Of a DNA stretch of 55,794 nucleotides, positions 18,898-28,482 are shown in pieces; the stretch's first letter is position 1, and every line of letters starts with the position of its first letter. Both the position numbers and the translations under genes were made by a program. Under the pieces are notes generated by a model. That model saw only the letters and a program-made list of their open reading frames with translations, did no database searches and was not told where the DNA came from. The DNA comes from a virus: the IMG/VR virus record IMGVR_UViG_3300045988_029329, positions 1-55,794 of that record. One strand, written 5' to 3'.

Positions 18898-19219
18898 GCT
18901 TTTTGACCTTATCCCCGCCCCTGTGGCCCTTGTGCTGATGCTGGGCGGTTTTATCTTTTACGCCCTGGGCTGCGTCCGGCTAGGCTATGGCGCAGCGGTA
19001 AAGCCGCTGGTGCTGGACCTCATCGAGCGGGCCGAGCAGGAGATTCAGGGGACGAAGCGCGGCGCAGAGCGCAAGGCGTGGGTCGTCAAGATGCTTCGCG
19101 CCGCCCTGAGTGCCAGCAAATACGGTAGGCTCATCAGCTGGGCCATCACCGATGAGACCATCGGCAAAGTTATCCAGTTTTTCTTCGACCGCATGAAGGC
19201 GGCCTTGCAAAATCAGTGA
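18878..19219 (+). CDS. holin (LL-H family-like)
   Basis: 113 aa. N-terminal TM segment, then ERAEQEIQGTKRGAERKAWVV, resembling the LL-H aEq..G..K motif. Confidence 0.55.
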   Translation: MVALATKLFDLIPAPVALVLMLGGFIFYALGCVRLGYGAAVKPLVLDLIERAEQEIQGTKRGAERKAWVVKMLRAALSASKYGRLISWAITDETIGKVIQFFFDRMKAALQNQ

Positions 19220-19229
19220 GGTTTTGACT

Positions 19230-19632
19230 ATGAGTAGCACTACGTACACACGACATTGGTTAAAACAGGCCATTTTTACGAATGAAGCCGGCACTTTTGC
19301 CGTTAAAGGCCAGATTTGCCACCATCTCGGTAACGTCACCGCAATGGTGCGTAACGCCGGACAGCTGCCGCAGCCCTTCTGGCTCGGTATTGTCTGTGGC
19401 GGCGGCTCGCGTGGTGCTGCCACTGTGCCTGCAAGGACTTGACCGGCAGCAGATGACCGCCGCAATCAAAAACGCACCGCTTGGGAGGGTAGACCGTAAG
19501 ATAGCCTTACTGCGGTACGTTGAGCGGCTTCCGCTGCCGGACATTGCGGCACAGACACATTACAGCCGGACGGCGATAGGCTACCGGCTGAAAGGCATTG
19601 AAAAAATGCTAGACGAAAGGAGCTTACCGTGA
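19230..19632 (+). pseudogene. sigma-70 region-4-like HTH regulator, apparently frameshifted (C-terminal HTH part 19453..19632 intact)
   Basis: The N-terminal MSSTTYTRHWLKQAIF is in one frame. The plausible continuation ...LKARFATISVTSP...RKIALLRYVERLPLPDIAAQTHYSRTAIGYRLKGIEKML is in the next frame. The switch is near the T5 run at 19273-19277. Confidence 0.35.
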
Positions 19633-19772
19633 GCATCGAAAATGTTCCGACCGCAAATCTTATTACAGAGCTTCGCAAACGCGAGGGCGTGGAAACGACC
19701 GTTGTCGAGCCCTATCAGGACGTAGCGGTCAGCGTCAACGGCCCTGCGCTGGTTCTTGTCGTGACGGATTGA
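19629..19772 (+). CDS. small conserved phage protein (BC1881-like)
   Basis: GTG start overlaps the preceding TGA. 47 aa: VSIENVPTANLITELRKREGVETTVVEPYQDVAVSVNGPALVLVVTD. Confidence 0.4.
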   Translation: MSIENVPTANLITELRKREGVETTVVEPYQDVAVSVNGPALVLVVTD

Positions 19773-19930
19773 TTGTGGTATAATAACATCAACAAATCCA
19801 CCCGGCCTCTCGAAGAAGCGCATTAGGGTGGATATTTGATACAGTCTCCTGCTCGCCTACTTGCAGTGCGTACCATGCGGGAGACGCAATTTTGCCGCTT
19901 CGGTGGCAGGGCGATTACTCGCTCACTTAT

Positions 19931-19969
19931 AATCCATCAGCTTTTAGGCTGGTGGATTTTGTTTTATTC
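19931..19969 (+). terminator. rho-independent terminator of the late operon
   Basis: 11-bp stem AATCCATCAGC/GCTGGTGGATT, loop TTTTAG, then TTTGTTTTATT. Confidence 0.7.
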
Positions 19970-20092
19970 TTACTAGTTTTGTCGAAATCATTGCCATATA
20001 TTGGATGATGTGGTATCTTAGCATTGCACTCCAATGTGTGCATCCTTACAGTTAAGCGCTCATGCGGATTTTTCCGTGTGGGCGCTTTTCTT

Positions 20093-20590
20093 TTACCCTT
20101 GCAACTCTTCTACTGATACGTTGCAGGCCGCAGCAATTTTCTTGAGCGTGGTCATCCGGATAGGTTTCCTGGCTTCTGCGTGTTGGATGGTCGCGGTAGA
20201 CAACCCGGTCTTCTCCGACAGCGCACGAATGGTCAGCCCGGCGTTTTCCCGAGCGGCTTTGATTTTTACGGCAGACACGCCGAGCGTTTTATAATCGGGT
20301 GACATATACCCGATTTGGAACATGCCCTGCTGCTGCAACGGCAATGCTTTGAGCGCAAAGCTGTTATCCACGTCCTCAAGGTCTACATCCTTCAGGACGT
20401 AAGCGCAGGCGTTGTCAAGCTCCGGGGTCATCTTGTGGAGCTTATGTGCCAGCGTAATTTTCATCATCACGCCACGCACGGGAAACCTCGTAGCGTTGTC
20501 AAGGTCTGCCTGATTCACGCGGTCGGAGTTGCAGGCTTCATCCAGCAAGCGGTAGAGCTTTCCGAGATTTTTGATAGTGGTGTTTTCCAT
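20093..20590 (-). CDS. XRE-family regulator (C-terminal HTH), divergent from the 20794 operon
   Basis: 165 aa. The C-terminus AARENAGLTIRALSEKTGLSTATIQHAEARK..TTLKKIAAACNVSVEEL is a classic HTH_XRE. Confidence 0.6.
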   Translation of the reverse strand: MENTTIKNLGKLYRLLDEACNSDRVNQADLDNATRFPVRGVMMKITLAHKLHKMTPELDNACAYVLKDVDLEDVDNSFALKALPLQQQGMFQIGYMSPDYKTLGVSAVKIKAARENAGLTIRALSEKTGLSTATIQHAEARKPIRMTTLKKIAAACNVSVEELQG

Positions 20591-20635
20591 ATTCGTTGCC
20601 TCCGTTTTCTTTTACTATACTAATTATACCACAAA

Positions 20636-20700
20636 ACTGCTACAAGTGATACAGGCATAGTCGCCAGACTTTGCCTTATTTTTTTGTTCGTTTTGTAGCA
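20636..20700. promoter_or_regulatory. inverted repeat CTGCTACAA ... TTGTAGCAG in the divergent intergenic region (candidate operator)
   Basis: The 9-mer at 20636-20644 and its reverse complement at 20692-20700. Each is adjacent to TGATACA or TGTATCA. Confidence 0.35.
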
Positions 20701-20793
20701 GTTGTATCAGTTTATATTTGTCCTTCGTTTGACGTTCGTTGTCTTTCGCTTTTTGCTGATGCGATACACTAGGAGCACAAGGAGGGATGTTTT

Positions 20794-21312
20794 ATGAGCT
20801 ATTATCCGACACCCGGAGCGCCCTACGTTCCGCAGCAGCCTGTCAATCCTTATGGTGGCATGGGTACAGTTGGGCTTGCCACTCCCCTACCCAACACGCA
20901 GATGCAACAGGCACAACCGCAGCGTCCGCAGCCAATGAATGGGCAGCAGCCTGTTCAGCAGTCGGTACAGGACGGCGGTTGGTTACTGGGCAGACCTGTT
21001 TCCAGCAGGGAGGAATTTCTGGCAATACCGTCTGACCTGTACGGCAGACCGACCTACTGCCCAGACTTGCGGAGCGGTGTGATCTACTGCAAGCGGCTCA
21101 ACCCGGATACCTGTGAATCTTATGTGCAGGAGTTTTACAGCCCAGAAGCATGGCGGCAGATACAGGCGCAACAGGCACAGCAGACCGCTGCACCTACACA
21201 GCAGTACGTGCCTGTTGAAGAGTATAACGCCCTCGTACACAGGCTGGATGAACTGGAAAAGTGGCAGAAGAGCTTTTCTAAGCCCACTGCCACAGCAAAG
21301 AAAGGAGAATAA
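20794..21312 (+). CDS. hypothetical P/Q-rich protein
   Basis: GGAGGG RBS. 172 aa. Pro/Gln-rich N-terminal half and a Cys-containing C-terminal half. Confidence 0.5.
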   Translation: MSYYPTPGAPYVPQQPVNPYGGMGTVGLATPLPNTQMQQAQPQRPQPMNGQQPVQQSVQDGGWLLGRPVSSREEFLAIPSDLYGRPTYCPDLRSGVIYCKRLNPDTCESYVQEFYSPEAWRQIQAQQAQQTAAPTQQYVPVEEYNALVHRLDELEKWQKSFSKPTATAKKGE

Positions 21313-21314
21313 CA

Positions 21315-21566
21315 ATGTCCTCTCCGTTTGATATGATTACGCACAGCCCTATTATGCAGCTTGCGAATCTGGCTCGTGCCGGGCAGAACCCGATGGGGCT
21401 TATCCAGCAGTTGAGCGGGCAAAATGCTCCCATCATGCAGGGCTTGAACCTGATTCAGGGCAAAAACGAAACGCAGCTCAGGACGATGGCGCAGAACCTC
21501 GCCAAAGAGCGGGGCATCGACCTGAACCAACTGGCAAGCGTCCTGAACCTGACGCTGCCCCGGTAA
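21315..21566 (+). CDS. hypothetical protein
   Basis: 83 aa. Starts 2 nt after the previous stop. Gln/Leu/Asn-rich. Confidence 0.45.
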   Translation: MSSPFDMITHSPIMQLANLARAGQNPMGLIQQLSGQNAPIMQGLNLIQGKNETQLRTMAQNLAKERGIDLNQLASVLNLTLPR

Positions 21567-21687
21567 AGCATCCCTCTAAGCGAAACGCTTCTCAGTTTTG
21601 CGGACTTGATAAAAACCGCTTTTATCTGGCTTCGCCCATCGCACACGGCGATGGGATAGCATACGCAAAACTGAAAGGAGTTTTGTT

Positions 21688-22560
21688 ATGGACGATTTTG
21701 CAACTGGCTATCTGGCTGGGCAGGACGGCGGCAATAACAACGGCGGATTCTTCGGCAACGAAGGTCTGTGGGCGGTTATCATCCTTGCCATCATTTTCGG
21801 CTGGGGCAACTACGGCAACGGACGCAACGGCGGCGACAACGGCATGAACAGCTACATTCCCTATCTGGTCGGCACTGGCGCAACCGGTCAGGGCGGCGCA
21901 GATACTCGTGCGGCTTTGTCTGAGGGCTTCTACCAGCAGGACACTTCCCGTTCTCTGGCTGGCATCCAGAGCGGTATCTGTTCTCTGGGCTATGACCAGC
22001 TCGCACAGATGAACACCCTCAACGCTGCCGTTGCGGGCGGCTTTGCTGGTACTAATCAGGCGATTTGTCAGCTCGGCTACCAGAACGCACAGCTCGTGAA
22101 CGGTCTGGAACGTAGCGTATCCAACGGCGACAATGCCATCAGCCTTGCCATCATGCAGGAGGGCAACGCACGGCAGGCGGGTCAGACCGCTATCCAGACG
22201 CAACTGGCATCTTGCTGCTGCGAGAACAAGCAGCTCATCGGCGACCTGAAGTACACCATTGCACAGCAGGATTGCGCTACCCGTCAGGCTATCGCAGACA
22301 ACGCCCGTGCCATCGTGGACAACTGCAACGCCAACTTCCGCAGCATGATGGACTACTTCACACAGGATAAGATTGCCACTCTGACCGCTGAGAACCAGAG
22401 CCTGAAGTTCGCGGCTTCTCAGGATCGGCAGAATGCGCTTCTGACCACCGTGATGTCCCAGCAGACCGATACCATCCTGAACCGGGTCAATCCTCGTCCG
22501 ATTCCCGCTTATCAGGTGGCAAACCCCAACGTGGGCGTGAACTGCTGCGGCTGCTGCTAA
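21688..22560 (+). CDS. hypothetical membrane-anchored Gly/Asn-rich, Cys-rich protein ending in CCGCC
   Basis: AAGGAG RBS. 290 aa. GGNNNGGFFGNEG, then TM LWAVIILAIIFGW, then a Q/N/A helical body with a CCC cluster. C-terminus is NCCGCC. Confidence 0.55.
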   Translation: MDDFATGYLAGQDGGNNNGGFFGNEGLWAVIILAIIFGWGNYGNGRNGGDNGMNSYIPYLVGTGATGQGGADTRAALSEGFYQQDTSRSLAGIQSGICSLGYDQLAQMNTLNAAVAGGFAGTNQAICQLGYQNAQLVNGLERSVSNGDNAISLAIMQEGNARQAGQTAIQTQLASCCCENKQLIGDLKYTIAQQDCATRQAIADNARAIVDNCNANFRSMMDYFTQDKIATLTAENQSLKFAASQDRQNALLTTVMSQQTDTILNRVNPRPIPAYQVANPNVGVNCCGCC

Positions 22561-22645
22561 CCTACACACTCCCCGATAACACCGGGTGAACCATCGGGGC
22601 AGGGGTAAGACACCTCTGCCCCTGATTTTTTAGGAGGAAACTATT

Positions 22646-23017
22646 ATGGCTTGCAAAACAAGCTGCAAACTCTGCCCGCACTTGGTCATCAGTCAGGCGG
22701 TCACGTTTGCCAACGACACGCTGACCATCAATATCCCTGCTGGCGCATACCAGAACGGAGAGAAGTATTGTATCGTGGTTGCTCAGAGCTTGCCGGACAC
22801 GACCACCATCAACGCCCCTGTGGTCATTACCATAGGTGCAGGCACGACCGCATACCCTCTGACCGACTGCAACTGCGCTCAGGCGACCGCCGAGAGCATC
22901 CACACCCGCACCCGTTACGCTACCCGTGTGGCAACGTCTGCGACCGGCACAGGCACGTTCAAGTATCTTGGCTGCTTCTGCCGCTCCCACGCCGGCGCGC
23001 CTGCGTCCATTTCCTGA
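22646..23017 (+). CDS. hypothetical beta-rich protein with Cys clusters at both termini
   Basis: AGGAGG RBS. 123 aa. N-terminus MACKTSCKLCP. C-terminus YLGCFC. Confidence 0.5.
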   Translation: MACKTSCKLCPHLVISQAVTFANDTLTINIPAGAYQNGEKYCIVVAQSLPDTTTINAPVVITIGAGTTAYPLTDCNCAQATAESIHTRTRYATRVATSATGTGTFKYLGCFCRSHAGAPASIS

Positions 23018-23030
23018 GGAGGTATAGATT

Positions 23031-23669
23031 ATGGGCAAGACTAATTTTCGCCGCATGATGATGCTCCGTGACCACGATAAAGACCGTGAGCCGGAACGTG
23101 ACCGCCTTGAGGAAGAGCGTGACCGCAGGGAGCGTGAGCTGGAACGCCGTCTGCGCAAGCTGGAATATGGCAACGACCGCTATCCTTACTATCCGCAGGA
23201 GGAGAACCGCTACATCGACCCCTACCCTATCCCCCGCTACCCTGACGTAGAGTATGGGCGCAGAATGCCGCAAATTGGCTTTTCGCAGAACGGAGACTGG
23301 GACAAGCGGGCTGGGCAGTATGAGCATGGCGGTGCTGACAGCCGTTCCATCAAGATGCCACGCAAGCACCTCACCCACGATGAAGCAGAGGAATGGTGCG
23401 ACAGCATGGTGAATGCTGACGGCACGAAGGGCTGTCACTGGACGCTGGAACAGACACAGGACGTTGCCAAGCAGCGCAACATCACCTGTGACCCGAACGA
23501 TTTCTGGGCTGTCATGAACATGATGTACTCGGATTATTGTCAGGTCGCAAAACGCCAGTCCGTTGACACTCCGGGCTTCTACGCTGACATGGCAAAGGCG
23601 TTCCTTGAGGACACGGACGCTGTGGACGGCAAGGCGTATGCCTACTGGGACTGCGTGACAGATAAATAA
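23031..23669 (+). CDS. hypothetical protein (charged R/E/D N-terminus, Tyr/Pro region, conserved-looking C-terminal domain)
   Basis: GGAGG RBS. 212 aa. Confidence 0.5.
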   Translation: MGKTNFRRMMMLRDHDKDREPERDRLEEERDRRERELERRLRKLEYGNDRYPYYPQEENRYIDPYPIPRYPDVEYGRRMPQIGFSQNGDWDKRAGQYEHGGADSRSIKMPRKHLTHDEAEEWCDSMVNADGTKGCHWTLEQTQDVAKQRNITCDPNDFWAVMNMMYSDYCQVAKRQSVDTPGFYADMAKAFLEDTDAVDGKAYAYWDCVTDK

Positions 23670-23670
23670 A

Positions 23671-23720
23671 GTAATCCCCTGCATAGTTTAATCGGCTGTG
23701 CAGGGGATTACTTTCTATTA
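23671..23720. terminator. bidirectional rho-independent terminator
   Basis: 13-bp stem GTAATCCCCTGCA/TGCAGGGGATTAC, flanked by T-runs on both strands, between convergent genes. Confidence 0.7.
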
Positions 23721-23732
23721 TAATGATTAGTT

Positions 23733-23981
23733 TTACTCAAGCCAATTGATGAAATATCCGTTGTACTTAAACTCTTTTGCCTCATTCGCGGCCTTAATCA
23801 GATTCTTCGCAAAAGCAATCGCCTCATCCGGCGACAATGTTCGTCCAGGAAAACATACTTTGCTACCGATTGAAGTGTCAATTCCATCTCCACTTCTGCA
23901 AATTTCAATGCCGCTTCCGTAAGATTTCCTTCTCTGCTTCAAGTCTTCTATATTGTAATCAGAATATTTCACTTTGTCCAT
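23733..23981 (-). CDS. hypothetical small protein (low-GC cassette)
   Basis: AAGGAGGAG RBS. 82 aa. AT-rich codon usage. Confidence 0.5.
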   Translation of the reverse strand: MDKVKYSDYNIEDLKQRRKSYGSGIEICRSGDGIDTSIGSKVCFPGRTLSPDEAIAFAKNLIKAANEAKEFKYNGYFINWLE

Positions 23982-24078
23982 GTGAACTCTCCTCCTTAAA
24001 TTTCAGCTTTTAGCTTGTTCCTCTTTTCTCCTGCATCTGTGTGTCTTGTATGTGCGCATTTTTCTCCCCTCACATAAA

Positions 24079-24348
24079 TTATTTTTCTTTGGTGTAGTAC
24101 AATTCCATATCTGCCTTGTACATATCAAGTTGTCTTTTGCTATCCATAAGTGTGTTAAAACTAATTCCCGCCGCAAAAGATACGGCGATGGACAAAATCA
24201 AGTGTGCTGCAACCCATTTACCAGCAAAGATAAAAGGAATCTGAATTGCTATGGCAAAAGCATCGAACAAAAGAACGTAAATGCCACGTTTAACCATTTT
24301 CTGTAATCGGATAATACTTCCTTCGTAAAATTCCTTCGACCTCATCAT
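24079..24348 (-). CDS. small 2-TM membrane protein (low-GC cassette)
   Basis: 89 aa. Two hydrophobic segments, GIYVLLFDAFAIAIQIPFIFA and AAHLILSIAVSFAAGISF. Starts 3 nt after the AAA+ stop. Confidence 0.55.
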   Translation of the reverse strand: MMRSKEFYEGSIIRLQKMVKRGIYVLLFDAFAIAIQIPFIFAGKWVAAHLILSIAVSFAAGISFNTLMDSKRQLDMYKADMELYYTKEK

Positions 24349-24351
24349 ACG

Positions 24352-25233
24352 TCAATCCTCCAAGAAATCCTCTTGATTCAGAACTTGATTTACAATTCGT
24401 TCTGTACATTCTTTGATAACAGTAGATGCGGGGACGCAATCTTCATAAGCTATGTTTTCATATTGTGCTCCTGCATATTCAAAGAACCTTTTGGAAAGTA
24501 TTTCTGCATCCGCACGGCACAACGTCTTTAATTCGTATTGCAACGGAAATCTTCTTGCAAGTGCAGGGTCAAGCCTATCAAATCGGTTTGTCGTTCCAAT
24601 AATAATGACATTGTTCGGTAATCTATCCATTTCCTGCATAATCGCAATAACCACACGGTTCATTTCCCCAACGTCATCTTTTTGCCCACGAGCCATTCCG
24701 ACCGCATCTATTTCATCAAAACAAAGAACGCAAGGAGCAGTCCTCACATAATCAAAAATTCTTGCAAGGTTAGATTGTGTTTGTCCTAAGTGCGAATCAA
24801 CTAGACTTGAAAATTGAATCCTCAAAAACGGAAGTTTTGCTTTATGTGCGATATACCTAGCCAGCATGGTTTTTCCGCATCCGCTTTGCCCATAAAGCAT
24901 CAATGCTGGCAAATAAGGAATTCCCATTTCATTTAATTTTTCAGATGCTCGATAAATAGCAACGATTTTCTGCGTTATACTTTTTTCTTCGTTCCTAAGA
25001 AGAAATCTTGCTTCTGGAAATTCTTCTGTATCCTCTGCGATCAAAAGATGCTGTAAGTTATATGGCACTTCAATAAATTCTCTTTTGCTTTCCAACTTGC
25101 GAAACATATTTTCTTTGAACTGTTCATCTTTTTTGGATGATATGGAATTCAAAATGATTTTAACAGCTTTTTGCGCGTTTCGCATATCACCATCGCAAAC
25201 AAATCGAATAAGGTGTCGTTCACTATCATTCAT
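24352..25233 (-). CDS. classic-clade AAA+ ATPase
   Basis: Walker A GQSGCGKT, Walker B VLCFDEID, sensor-1 IIIGTTN, and Arg-finger region DRLDPALARRF. 293 aa. Confidence 0.85.
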   Translation of the reverse strand: MNDSERHLIRFVCDGDMRNAQKAVKIILNSISSKKDEQFKENMFRKLESKREFIEVPYNLQHLLIAEDTEEFPEARFLLRNEEKSITQKIVAIYRASEKLNEMGIPYLPALMLYGQSGCGKTMLARYIAHKAKLPFLRIQFSSLVDSHLGQTQSNLARIFDYVRTAPCVLCFDEIDAVGMARGQKDDVGEMNRVVIAIMQEMDRLPNNVIIIGTTNRFDRLDPALARRFPLQYELKTLCRADAEILSKRFFEYAGAQYENIAYEDCVPASTVIKECTERIVNQVLNQEDFLED

Positions 25234-25798: not shown

Positions 25799-26322
25799 TC
25801 TACATCAGCCTCCTCATAATCCGAATCTTCAAAGGATGGAGCTTCTGGCAACGGCATCCAATGCGTCGCTCCGAGATTATTACACCAATCTGTTTTCCAA
25901 ATAGGTTTTCCACCGTCTTCTGGATAGAAGTAACACTGTGCGATATCTGTTCCTGTCAACGGCGATGCAACGAGGACGGGGTTGCTTTCAAGTTCTCCAT
26001 TTACATCCACCATTTCGGGGTAGTGGTCGCTCACTCTAATCCATTCCTTGCTCCATAACCATTTTTCCTTGAAATACTGTACATCTTTCTTGTACTGCTC
26101 TTTATCAATGTCGCCACTTCTGTACCAATCACAGCTATGCAAAACACAGAGCAAATCGTACAGAAGCATACTCAAATCTTTGTCTCCAAGCGGATTTTCT
26201 TTTCGTGCAATAATCGAAAGCTCTTTTACCCGTTCATCTGCAAGGTCATAATCTGGGTAACAGTTCTGATAAATAGTATTTGCAAGGCTGTCATTTTGAC
26301 AATCCCAATATCCACCACTCAT
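25795..26322 (-). CDS. hypothetical protein with C-terminal DUF551-like domain
   Basis: 175 aa. WIRVSDHYPE ... ATHWMPLPEAP matches the motif of four other paralogues in this genome. Confidence 0.5.
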   Translation of the reverse strand: MSGGYWDCQNDSLANTIYQNCYPDYDLADERVKELSIIARKENPLGDKDLSMLLYDLLCVLHSCDWYRSGDIDKEQYKKDVQYFKEKWLWSKEWIRVSDHYPEMVDVNGELESNPVLVASPLTGTDIAQCYFYPEDGGKPIWKTDWCNNLGATHWMPLPEAPSFEDSDYEEADVE

Positions 26323-27089
26323 TTTTCTTTTCCTCCAACAATCATCTGTGCCAACGCCTTGAAATCCTCTGCACTGGTACTCTTTGCCGTATCACCGCTA
26401 AACAGGCTGTGCCGCTCTGCCTGCGCCTTACGAACGCCCATAGACGGTCTAATCTTCACGTCCAAAAGCCTTGTTCCCATGCTTTGTGCAATCACAGGGA
26501 GCTGCTCAACAACCTCTTTGGACAGGTTCTCACGGCTCTTGTACTGGTTCAGAAGCAGACCTTCAATCTTCAAAGTCGGGTTGAAGTATCTGCGAACATC
26601 ACCAATGGTCTGCGAAAGCTGGCTCAATCCAGCAAGTGCATAGCGGTCTGCTGTGATGGGCACGATGATGCTGTTGGCGGCGATCAGTGCGTTCACAAGT
26701 GCAAGACCAAGCTGCGGGGGAGTGTCCAGCACAATGTAATCGTACTGTTCGGACACGGATTCCAGTGCTTCTCGCAGCCGGAAGTTCTTGCCAATGTCCC
26801 GGACAAGTTGCTCGTCAATGTCCTTCAATGCGTTGTCTGACGGCAGAATGTCACCGGCTTCACAGTGCTGGATTCCCTCTTCTACCGTACCCTGCCGGGT
26901 CATTACATCGAACAGGGTACACACGTCCTCTGTCTGTGCGCCGTAGGTGTCCGTTGCGTTGCACTGGGCATCGCAGTCCACCAGCAACACTTTCTTCCCA
27001 AGCAGCTGCAACGCACCAGCCAGACAGGTACTTGTGGTAGTCTTTCCTGTGCCGCCCTTCTGGTTGGCGACAGCTATAATTTTTGCCAT
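26319..27089 (-). CDS. parA: ParA/Soj-family partition ATPase
   Basis: Deviant Walker A in MAKIIAVANQKGGTGKTTT, then LLVDCDAQCN. 256 aa. Confidence 0.85.
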   Translation of the reverse strand: MAKIIAVANQKGGTGKTTTSTCLAGALQLLGKKVLLVDCDAQCNATDTYGAQTEDVCTLFDVMTRQGTVEEGIQHCEAGDILPSDNALKDIDEQLVRDIGKNFRLREALESVSEQYDYIVLDTPPQLGLALVNALIAANSIIVPITADRYALAGLSQLSQTIGDVRRYFNPTLKIEGLLLNQYKSRENLSKEVVEQLPVIAQSMGTRLLDVKIRPSMGVRKAQAERHSLFSGDTAKSTSAEDFKALAQMIVGGKEK

Positions 27090-27104
27090 TTTATCACTCT
27101 TTCT

Positions 27105-27344
27105 TTATTCTTCGGGTTCATCAGGGAGCGGCATCCAATGGGTTACATGATATAACACATTATCATCAATCAGTTGCGTTTCACTATTGTTTCCATAGAA
27201 CGCATCCGTCAACACATCATCTGTATACCATTTTTCGCCTTTGAAGTCACCATAATAACCGAAAGTAACGCCCATCACTTTATCATAAATGATAATCTGA
27301 ATGTACTTGTCTGGCATCTTATCTTTTACGCTAATCCAACCCAT
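27105..27344 (-). CDS. DUF551-like protein
   Basis: AGGAG RBS. MGWISVKDKMPDK ... VTHWMPLPDEPEE. Confidence 0.5.
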   Translation of the reverse strand: MGWISVKDKMPDKYIQIIIYDKVMGVTFGYYGDFKGEKWYTDDVLTDAFYGNNSETQLIDDNVLYHVTHWMPLPDEPEE

Positions 27345-27387
27345 TCTCGCTCCTTTCTGCATCATCTGCTTAATGCGCTACATCCGA

Positions 27388-28482
27388 TTACTTTAAGAGG
27401 CTATCGTCAAACGTAGCGTAATCATCAAGGTCTGCATCTTTCAAAATTGAGTACATATAAGCGCCGGGGTCTTTTTCAATCCTATCAAGTCGCTCACTGA
27501 CAAGAATCTTGTATGCATTCTCAATGATGTTCACAACAGCTTCTTTTTTCTTGTTAGGCTTGATGTTCGGATACTTCTCCGGCAATCTCTTTGCCACCAG
27601 CTTTGCGGTCAAGATACACTGGCTTTTAGACATCTCCGGCGCAATAGATGCCCAATCCACATTCTCGTATGCGCCACTGCGGGGCTTTCTGGCAGGTCGT
27701 TGGCTCTTTGGAACATCTTTTAACTCTACGCTTTCGACCTCGTTAGCTTCCACGTCTATGACTGGCTCATTAGACTTGAAAGCTATATTGAACTTCACAG
27801 CAACCGCATTGCGACCTCTCATGACCTTGTCGTATTCAACGCACAGGTCTGATACTTCGTTTATTTCAGCTACCGCAATATCAATGACACGCCGCCTAAG
27901 ATGCTTGAACTCTTGATAGCTAGGTTCTCTTGCGCCAAGTTGTTCCCTTAATCTATCCAACGTAATTTCGGGCTGGCTCACGCCACGTCCGATGAACTCT
28001 CGGAGAATTGAATACAGCAAAATGCTATACTGTGATTTCATATTCGCTGTGTAGCGCAAGCGATACTTGACATATCCACGCTCTGCAATGTCGAAGAAAA
28101 CAGGTTGTAGAAGTGGGTTACAGCACAATGACACAGTAATATTCATCAAACTAGGTTCAAAATTTACAGTTGCTCTGCTGAACAGGGGATACAGGTCAAA
28201 CGAGCCTGAACCGTCACCTCTAGGAACTTCAACAGAGTTGTCGATGAAATGCTTAACCTGTGCTTTCAAATTCCTAGAGTTGATTTTTAACCCTAAAAAT
28301 TCGCAATATTCTTGTAACGTAAACTGAACCGTTGAAGTTTCGGGGTCTCTCGGATTGATACGGCTAAGATACACTTCAAGCAGCCGAAGCTCTCCTGCTG
28401 TATAGTCAGTGAACTTTGCCCAAACAAGCTGTCTGCTTTTTTCAACCAAGTTCCCGCCTTTAATATCAGACAATCTTATCAC
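27388..28482 (-). CDS. plasmid-type replication initiator (Rep_3/RepB-like)
   Basis: 364 aa. The N-terminus LVEKSRQLVWAKFTDYTAGELRLLEVYLSRI...FTLQEYCEFLGLK fits the Rep_3 pattern. Iterons lie directly upstream. Confidence 0.7.
   Translation of the reverse strand: MIRLSDIKGGNLVEKSRQLVWAKFTDYTAGELRLLEVYLSRINPRDPETSTVQFTLQEYCEFLGLKINSRNLKAQVKHFIDNSVEVPRGDGSGSFDLYPLFSRATVNFEPSLMNITVSLCCNPLLQPVFFDIAERGYVKYRLRYTANMKSQYSILLYSILREFIGRGVSQPEITLDRLREQLGAREPSYQEFKHLRRRVIDIAVAEINEVSDLCVEYDKVMRGRNAVAVKFNIAFKSNEPVIDVEANEVESVELKDVPKSQRPARKPRSGAYENVDWASIAPEMSKSQCILTAKLVAKRLPEKYPNIKPNKKKEAVVNIIENAYKILVSERLDRIEKDPGAYMYSILKDADLDDYATFDDSLLK

Follow-up and report, generated by a model that had tools for sequence, protein, structure and literature searches.

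The window analysed here is the whole of a 55,794-nucleotide stretch of viral DNA (IMG/VR record IMGVR_UViG_3300045988_029329, positions 1 to 55,794), which from its gene content belongs to a siphovirus-like phage-plasmid; its nearest relatives are human faecal phage contigs without annotation. Between its lysis genes, which encode a GH25 lysin and then two holin-like proteins, and the ParA and Rep3 genes it carries five plus-strand genes, designated A to E below, together with a minus-strand gene for an XRE-type regulator. These six open reading frames (ORFs) have exactly the coordinates reported in an initial annotation made from the sequence alone, which had viewed them as a divergently regulated operon of Cys-rich proteins. 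The follow-up analysis establishes genes A to E as a phage-specific accessory cassette with a fixed gene order and no enzymatic domain, placed under dedicated control at the transcriptional and RNA levels through putative mechanisms that are considered below. The elements of the cassette are the following.

20794..21312, plus strand: gene A, 172 aa; phrog_21718, unknown function
21315..21566, plus strand: gene B, 83 aa; small M/Q/N-rich helical protein
21587..21680, plus strand: structured leader of C, about 100 nt; an anti-Shine-Dalgarno strand (21587-21602) pairs with 21664-21680, including the Shine-Dalgarno (SD) sequence AAAGGAG
21688..22560, plus strand: gene C, 290 aa; phrog_16490, unknown function (5e-38); product ending in ...NCCGCC
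22572..22622, plus strand: two-hairpin element, with hairpin H1 (22572-22586), UGA (22587-22589) and GC-rich hairpin H2 (22596-22622)
22646..23017, plus strand: gene D, 123 aa; stand-alone eight-stranded beta protein
23031..23669, plus strand: gene E, 212 aa; DUF7841 (PF25223, 2.5e-26)

Make-up, order and spread of the cassette

The tight packing attributed initially to the five genes holds for A-B and D-E, which are separated by 2 and 13 nt, and fails for B-C (121 nt) and C-D (85 nt), where the long gaps contain conserved RNA structures. Likewise, the proposed Cys-richness is not common to all products, being found in C (11 Cys) and D (8 Cys), with three Cys in A and none in B. The described compositions proved correct on recount, that is, P/Q-rich for A (Q23, P21), Q/N-rich for B (Q10, N8), Gly/Asn-rich for C (G35, N29) and charged with Tyr for E (D25, R23, E18, Y14).

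When one genome per species was scanned, 80 loci with D were obtained, nearly all of them in Oscillospiraceae and other Clostridia, with Anaerotruncus colihominis, Flintibacter muris, Muriventricola aceti and Agathobaculum desmolans as cultured carriers; many hosts of the cassette are spore formers. The copy of A. colihominis DSM 17241 (L016) is found at about 1.677-1.680 Mb of NZ_CP102255.1, and the F. muris carrier is strain DSM 110149. Some loci are binned as Alistipes, Akkermansia or Methanarcanum, and P0324 bears the NCBI label Segatella hominis, probably as a result of binning errors for phage contigs. Iterated hidden Markov model (HMM) searches were counted over 91 sources, namely the window and 90 loci obtained by genome, annotated-phage and contig look-up. 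A was matched in 73 of these, C in 82, D in 84 and E in 45; B, matched in 59, was located between A and C in every case, and the order A-B-C-D-E on one strand was kept without exception. A further 54 complete cassettes were present among IMG/VR contigs, and in total the synteny extends to about 140 loci (about 80 genome loci and about 60 viral contigs), where it holds at protein identities of 25-70% and in several bacterial families. The co-occurrence check of the five families thus shows that A to E travel together, and the same-order co-occurrence upholds the initial view of the five genes as a functional unit. The opposite view, according to which the five ORFs would be unrelated adjacent cargo without a common function, has nothing in its favour beyond the missing annotation; with order and orientation maintained at such divergence and conserved RNAs in the spacers, it is extremely improbable.

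With regard to genomic position, at least 37 of the 52 loci with enough flanking sequence have lysins (GH25, amidase, CHAP/NlpC) or holin-like genes upstream of the cassette. Downstream, an integrase gene on the opposite strand is found in at least 17 of 64 loci, and a serine recombinase gene in L023. The annotation of Bajarodcaudo virus 2 (30.7 kb) lists no integrase; there, A to D are placed between the portal and major capsid genes. In Bajarodcaudo virus 5 they come after the holin and lysin genes. The cassettes of the window and of its nearest relative, L007, are 91-98% identical, against 44% for the lysin. The tail proteins encoded upstream of the cassette belong to many unrelated PHROG families, and among the loci collected the cassette was not found clearly outside phage contexts. 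One copy consisting of B-C-D-E, with A not detected, occurs in an Oscillospiraceae isolate (L021, 9486-11909, minus strand) between host genes (PEP-utilising enzyme) and a SIR2-STAND NTPase gene; it may be a prophage remnant or part of a defence island.

In summary, the cassette is widespread, being present in thousands of phages of gut Clostridia, mainly Oscillospiraceae; in these temperate phages, prophages and phage-plasmids it sits at the far end of the late (tail and lysis) block. A module that is so common and so strictly ordered in dominant gut Clostridia phages very likely matters for phage or lysogen biology, and the definition of its parts, boundaries, cultured hosts and two cis-acting RNA elements makes this question directly testable.

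RNA elements in the two long spacers

The leader in the B-C spacer of the window folds with a minimum free energy of -46.7 kcal/mol (z -6.83), a stability reached in 0 of 200 shuffles. Its long helix encloses two internal hairpins, located at 21600-21619, with the conserved loop CUUGAUAAAAA, and at 21635-21655. MAFFT followed by RNAalifold gave no structure for the leader (the alignment being non-structural), and per-sequence folding and duplex analysis were therefore used for the relatives. In 29 distinct sequences a CU-rich strand located about 90 nt upstream pairs with AAAC(U/C)GAAAAGGAG, which includes the SD of C, the duplex having a mean energy of -14.7 kcal/mol and a mean z of -4.3. At least three of the four SD bases are paired in 22 of the 29, and positions -8 to -4 of the helix display three to four Watson-Crick pair types, that is, compensatory changes. 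The hairpin loop inside the helix is conserved as UCUUGAYAAAAA. The leader also contains three segments, X, Y and Z (GCUCCC, GGGGAGC and GCCCCGG), the middle one being able to pair with either neighbour in mutually exclusive fashion; the three segments covary, for example in L073, and are followed by a conserved UG(C/U)(A/G)AAUA box. About 35 loci have a shorter leader, composed of a variable hairpin and this box only.

The link between leader and cassette was also apparent from the loop itself. A 17-mer of the loop was present in 71 IMG/VR contigs, 54 of which have C at the expected distance; 10 further contigs are cut by the contig or locus end, and eight of these show A (and usually B) upstream, the remaining two having nothing but the contig end there. 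The other seven are unrelated to the cassette, a number close to the estimated chance level, and the 17-mer marks the B-C spacer in 64 of the 71. As in riboswitches, a covarying structure is combined with a putative expression platform. The leader is read as a translational lock on C and as a possible switch or processing site, a mode of action suggested by the predicted pairing of the SD.

The C-D spacer presents a different layout, composed of H1, an invariant UGA, 5-9 A/U-rich bases ending in UC, H2 and usually a U run. In the window the element has a z of -3.58, and the GC-rich H2 is followed by TGATTTTTT, in the manner of an intrinsic terminator. About ten relatives lack a U run after H2 (UGAGAAAGGAG), and therefore termination is perhaps not its sole role. 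The arrangement was found in 60 of 81 unique sequences, compared to a mean of 5.2 (maximum 13) in shuffled ones. RNAalifold recovers H2, with compensatory changes in eight of its nine pairs, and in both stems the sequence varies while the pairing is kept. The possibility that the conserved UGA serves as an in-frame stop for read-through of C was discarded because its frame differs between loci. The element is read as a terminator/attenuator or as a processing-stabilisation site, by which the level of D and E would be uncoupled from that of C. In six loci (L014, L022, L036, L041, L070 and L079) D is preceded by an extra small gene of about 75-95 aa, located downstream of the two-hairpin element.

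Selective RNA processing and stabilisation operates in the E. coli papBA and Clostridium cellulolyticum cip-cel operons. The cassette resembles these, as well as SD-sequestering leaders, in that hairpins flank an A/U-rich single strand and a leader helix pairs with the SD, and with papBA and cip-cel it shares the apparent purpose of setting subunit ratios. It differs from all of them in the mutually exclusive pairings of the leader and in that its RNAs match no Rfam family: covariance models run over 19000-24500, at E up to 10, gave no relevant match to the leader or to the C-D element. The two motifs are thus candidate new regulatory RNA families.

Protein C, its sister-phage version and the other products

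Relatives of C form more than 7000 protein clusters, nearly all from gut metagenomes and none functionally named; searches for a known fibre family returned only phrog_16490. The N-terminal part of C is composed of a short conserved tail and a Trp-flanked hydrophobic anchor between Gly/Asn-rich linkers, and the sole strongly hydrophobic stretch of the protein, GLWAVIILAIIFGWG, covers residues 26-40. The remainder consists of Q/N/A-rich helical repeats, an invariant CCC (176-178), a PxPxPAY motif and a Cys-rich end.

In three sister proteins from three samples (P0064, P0054 and P0069), the C-terminal half of C stands behind an unrelated N-terminus with an A/Q-rich segment, to which P0064 adds collagen repeats. 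Tail-fibre PHROGs (phrog_366, phrog_10972 and others) match the foreign N-terminus of P0064 and no other part. The corresponding contigs are phage-plasmids with the same Rep3, ParA and NikA-like genes. In them, 4 nt separate the last holin-like gene from the start of the fused gene, D and E come next, and four genes are missing: the small helix-turn-helix (HTH) gene described in the next section, the XRE regulator, A and B. The 4-nt spacing indicates that in sister phages the unit is transcribed with the late lysis genes. Together with D and E, the C-terminal half of C probably makes up a functional unit for which either a hydrophobic anchor or a collagen fibre can serve as the base, and its occurrence on both suggests that this half probably forms trimers. 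Such a swap on a single C-terminal module amounts to a natural experiment on the role of the module. Seven other proteins (P0416, P0417, P0469, P0483, P0491, P0066 and P0056) combine parts of C or D with unrelated sequence, the junction falling inside a domain; the partners are integrase, CHAP amidase, ROK kinase or gene A. These joins look like assembly chimeras, deletions or frameshifts.

Protein D is the best conserved product; when the identity of A, B, C and E has fallen to 25-45%, that of D is still 60-70%. It has 1613 relatives, none functionally named, and an exhaustive profile search of a library of 1.8 billion proteins yielded 367 representatives at 50% identity, always stand-alone and of about 100-180 aa; as with C, gut metagenomes are the source of nearly all. 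Longer matches, which would have made D a domain of longer fibre proteins, turned out to be assembly chimeras with integrase, amidase and kinase fragments. The eight Cys of D are at positions 3, 7, 10, 42, 75, 77, 110 and 112, including an N-terminal CX3CX2C, and C7, C10, C42 and C77 are invariant in the family alignment. The invariance of Cys positions in C and D keeps the initially suggested Cys-linked assembly plausible. In the AlphaFold2 model (pLDDT 74) eight beta strands follow a disordered Cys-bearing N-terminus. A Foldseek search of this model against the PDB gave nothing significant (best E 0.14, a phage baseplate/fibre complex), and against the BFVD viral models it retrieved its own family and, weakly, C-terminal parts of long phage fibre proteins (E 1e-4 to 1e-5, TM about 0.5). 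The idea that D is related to Ena spore appendages was abandoned, since neither a DUF3992 match in 36 members nor a PDB match in Foldseek was obtained.

Protein A begins with a disordered region rich in P, Q and Y, which is followed by a small conserved core (RPVsSxEEA...IYxK), an amphipathic coiled-coil-like helix towards the C-terminus and a K-rich tail; it gave no match in Pfam or the PDB. In its predicted model E shows a charged helix, a disordered region of about 60 residues rich in Tyr, Pro and Arg, and the helical DUF7841 domain, with no fold match in the PDB; no mention of DUF7841 was found in the literature searched. P0324 is a 169-aa DUF7841 protein that is 86% identical to the E domain. 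Twenty-seven loci devoid of E have a different fifth protein after D, with a charged R/D/G/S/Y-rich centre.

The searches of Pfam, PHROGs, NCBIfam, PADLOC and PDB sequences and profiles with the five proteins returned DUF7841 (E) and two PHROGs of unknown function (A and C) only, leaving B and D with no family match in Pfam, PHROGs and NCBIfam and giving no PADLOC defence match to A-E, at E up to 1, other than noise. The initial statement that none of the products is recognisable therefore stands: profile and structure searches disclosed no characterised family and, for the predicted folds of D and E, no solved structure. The claim that the genes are not part of the virion or lysis modules is in line with the lack of homology to known virion, lysis or housekeeping proteins. 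By contrast, "extracellular" can hardly be retained, as sequence inspection of A, B, D and E detected neither signal peptide nor lipobox and C has an N-terminal anchor only.

The tail-fibre gene sets of T4 (gp37-gp38) and lambda (stf-tfa) offer a partial parallel. As in these, genes of small partners follow that of a long helical or fibrous protein; moreover, the C module stands behind collagen/tail-fibre-like sequence in sister phages and D is weakly fibre-like in BFVD. However, sequence homology is absent, the cassette is found after the lysis genes and without regard to tail type, C in its common form carries an anchor of membrane type, and D is the least variable product.

The anchor of C also brings into consideration a membrane-acting module of late or exclusion function, in which C would be a lysis accessory, a superinfection-exclusion factor or a toxin-like protein, with its synthesis restrained by the leader and its action modulated by D and E. 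In agreement with this, the cassette constantly neighbours holin and endolysin genes, C is under unusually tight translational control, and C combines an N-terminal anchor, a coiled coil and conserved Cys, which is the layout of an i-spanin (in a single-membraned host). The comparison with Rz/Rz1 spanins, which the cassette recalls by its neighbourhood of endolysin and holin genes, nevertheless breaks down at the outer-membrane lipoprotein partner and the diderm host, the hosts here being Clostridia, that is, monoderm Firmicutes. With no lipoprotein partner, no PADLOC defence match, an anchor replaceable by a collagen-fibre N-terminus, and five conserved genes with disordered Q-rich partners that exceed the needs of known exclusion or lysis accessories, such a role seems quite unlikely.

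Transcriptional control and readings of the function

The following features surround the cassette.

19282..19632, plus strand: small HTH protein, sigma-70 region 4-like; start probably at 19453; weak Sigma70_r4_2 match (0.0015)
19931..19958, plus strand: intrinsic-terminator-like hairpin, ending the tail/lysis transcription unit
20054..20087, plus strand: second terminator-like hairpin; in L007, directly upstream of the A promoter region
20093-20590, minus strand: XRE-type regulator, 165 aa; HTH_3 at residues 110-163 (6e-12)
20634..20713, no strand assigned: operator-like inverted repeat with four CTG(C/A)TACA(A/G) half-sites, two direct and two inverted
23669..23713, plus strand: strong terminator-like hairpin of 20 pairs, ending the cassette

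The XRE regulator faces A across a spacer of 203 bp, in which the two inverted 9-mers noticed initially are indeed present (20637-20645 and 20693-20701). Both belong to longer inverted repeats, a perfect one of 11 bp and one of 20 nt with 85% identity (20634-20653 / 20694-20713). On our reading, the operator-like repeat overlaps the -35 region of the regulator's TATAAT promoter. The arrangement is that of a repressor and its operator, with an HTH_3 protein and inverted repeats in the divergent spacer, and the repeat is most likely the regulator's own putative operator. The CTG(C/A)TACA(A/G) motif occurs 10 times in the window, compared to 1.4 expected; its interpretation as a phage-wide late-promoter signal was rejected, since the other copies fall in coding sequence and share no extended context. 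Conservation along with the target genes was not observed: the regulator gene was found in one of the 91 sources, the window itself, and in L007 its place is taken by two unrelated small genes. From this sequence comparison we conclude that regulator and putative operator represent a local insertion outside the conserved system, and divergent regulation, as initially proposed, is not a property of that system.

The terminators described as bracketing the operon were seen at both ends (19931-19958 and 23669-23713); two more terminator-like hairpins, at 20054-20087 and, inside the operon, at 22596-22622, had been missed. Translational coupling of A was seen in about 25 loci, where it overlaps, or comes directly after, an upstream gene of the late strand; this gene codes either for a 125-aa protein with a Cys-His-Asp pattern or for a helical protein of about 65 aa. 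The former (GDCVVRS / GSHVV / DTWDSG) has no Pfam match, and its gene ends 4 nt before A in about 15 loci (L017, L020, L022, L030, L032-L034, L036, L038, L049, L053, L054, L057, L080 and L081); that it is a putative protease or transglutaminase-like enzyme acting on the Q-/K-rich A and B is offered as an idea only. In most other loci a terminator is immediately followed, by eye, by a TGnTATAAT-like -10 without a -35. Eight distinct loci (including L001, L039, L044, L047, L052, L056 and L074) have three or four TGATAG/TGATAA boxes, in exact 11-bp phase, between the terminator and the extended -10, at about -96 to -63 from the A start, and a 79-aa GerE/LuxR-type gene is found upstream in four of the eight. 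Small stand-alone HTH genes, of GerE/LuxR-type (PF00196, 28.3 bits) or sigma-r4-like groups, are located just upstream of the cassette in about 20 loci, and that of the window has HMM matches in 11 loci. By eye, the promoters of the relatives look sigma-A and activator-dependent rather than sporulation-type. In the window itself, a scan of the region upstream of A turned up no consensus promoter; two TTCGTT repeats and a TACACT -10 candidate lie in the part that is conserved in L007. Also in the window, GATACACT is, on comparison by eye, one base off what we take to be the sigma-E -10 consensus.

Morons are autonomous promoter-gene-terminator inserts, typically found after lysis genes. The cassette is similar to those of lambdoid and temperate Firmicutes phages in its position between lysis and lysogeny/maintenance genes, its flanking terminators, its own putative promoter and regulator in many loci, and its mosaic exchange (L007); in the window, factor-independent terminators flank it and it is inserted between functional modules. 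It departs from them in having five genes in fixed order over deep divergence, in being confined to almost only phage contexts, and in its frequent transcriptional fusion to late genes with internal RNA control elements. A second parallel is with the Bacillus cotVWXYZ crust genes and the Ena endospore appendages, which are under GerE control. The similarities lie in a cluster of small Cys-rich or low-complexity proteins, in GerE-type regulators at some loci, in the Cys-bearing N-terminal tail and eight-strand beta body of D, and in a putative terminator read through between two cistrons. On the other side, no match to CotZ, Coat_X or DUF3992 and no Ena match in Foldseek were obtained (for DUF3992 and CotZ, in 36 family members at E up to 10), the promoters look sigma-A-like and the genes are phage-borne. 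The main text of a paper on sporulation genes in gut phages contains no mention of coat, gerE or cysteine.

These parallels bear on the possibility of lysogenic conversion, whereby the module would be expressed from the prophage or phage-plasmid to give the membrane, envelope or spore of the host a layer or appendage cross-linked through Cys, to the benefit of the lysogen. Such a role would explain the apparent terminator-promoter-genes-terminator layout of the window and many loci, the site beside integrase or plasmid-maintenance genes and the dedicated small regulators, including the GerE/LuxR-type HTH proteins with their phased TGATAG boxes. It would also suit the P/Q/Y/G/N-rich low-complexity and Cys-rich products, whose composition recalls that of coat or matrix proteins, the spore-forming hosts, and the L021 copy beside host genes and the SIR2-STAND gene. 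It appears doubtful, however, in view of four products out of five without signal peptide, extended -10 promoters of sigma-A rather than sigma-E/K appearance (by eye), and the failure to match CotZ, DUF3992 or an Ena-like fold; on the last two grounds the "spore-surface" assignment of the initial annotation is not sustained. In addition, late-strand orientation of the genes is invariable and coupling to late genes frequent, a copy resides inside the head module of a phage without annotated integrase, and none was clearly outside phage contexts. The claim of synthesis during lysogeny is itself weakened by the sister C'-D-E version, which continues the holin operon, and by the loci where A is coupled to late-strand genes.

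Production with or after the late genes is thus tentatively favoured, on account of strand, position, late-gene coupling, the fused sister version and the head-module copy. The reading that we prefer, also tentatively, is that of a phage accessory structural module assembled on an anchored fibrous C, with subunit ratios set by the predicted RNA structures. It draws on the controlled ratios, the invariant Cys, the disordered Q-rich helpers and the anchor/fibre swap, which point to a self-assembling complex on C. The cassette would then build a non-enzymatic structural complex having C as its backbone, held in the common form by the hydrophobic N-terminal anchor. The Q/N/A-rich helical C-terminal half would be the fibre module, as suggested by its graft onto a collagen-bearing, tail-fibre-like N-terminus in sister phages. 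D and E (or the alternative charged protein) would be partners of C, probably joined via the invariant Cys through metal or disulfide bonds, and the Q-rich, partly disordered A and B would be helpers required only by the anchored form. With all products made in the cytoplasm, the complex may sit on the inner face of the membrane or become exposed upon holin/endolysin lysis; its final place may be the virion, the membrane of the infected or lysogenic cell, or the medium after lysis. Transcription would proceed from activator-dependent sigma-A-type promoters or by late-operon read-through; the leader would hide the ribosome-binding site of C until opened or cut, and the two-hairpin element would terminate or process the transcript, thereby giving D and E a level different from that of C.

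Several observations weigh against this structural reading. The proteins of the window have no homology to known virion or fibre families, and the predicted folds of D and E have no PDB match. Lysis genes and two terminators separate the cassette from the tail genes, and its own putative promoter and small regulator in many loci represent a moron architecture, suited to expression from the prophage. D is the best conserved product, the opposite of what applies to a receptor-binding tip; the unrelated upstream tail families argue against a docking site on the tail, and a membrane anchor is unusual in a virion protein. As to the chimeric sister proteins, their source is metagenome assemblies, yet they were found in three samples with three different junctions. 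A more specific version would have a membrane-anchored (in the variants, virion-anchored) trimeric fibre with a Cys-cluster cap (metal or disulfide) and Q-rich helpers, and a new signal-sensing, switch-like leader releasing translation of the anchor protein; the signal would be a ligand, a cassette protein or a processing enzyme. As a whole, this proposal is unlikely.

As for novelty, the general kinds involved (phage accessory operon, SD-sequestering leader, intercistronic terminator) are already known. What is new is the definition of the cassette, whose protein families had been catalogued only as unknowns, and its two RNA motifs, which are not in Rfam; that both the assembly and the leader RNA will prove to be something new does not seem probable.

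The window also contains identifiable genes for an SPP1-type portal, an E-type major capsid protein and a 1369-aa tape measure protein, and, on the opposite strand, for an IetA-like AAA ATPase, ParA and a Rep3 initiator. Its other listed features are given below.

483-559: tRNA-Met gene (anticodon CAT), upstream of the portal gene
24352-25233, minus strand: AAA ATPase matching PADLOC IetA models (1.5e-55), in a low-GC (39%) stretch
26319-28482, minus strand: ParA and Rep3-type initiator, a module common to the sister contigs L089 and L090

The ParA and Rep3-type initiator genes mark the element as a phage-plasmid, not an integrating prophage, and the AAA ATPase may be a putative defence gene aboard it. 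An antisense ORF of 315 aa (21622-22569, minus strand) spans all of gene C and is longer than it, so that a gene caller based on length would take the wrong strand.

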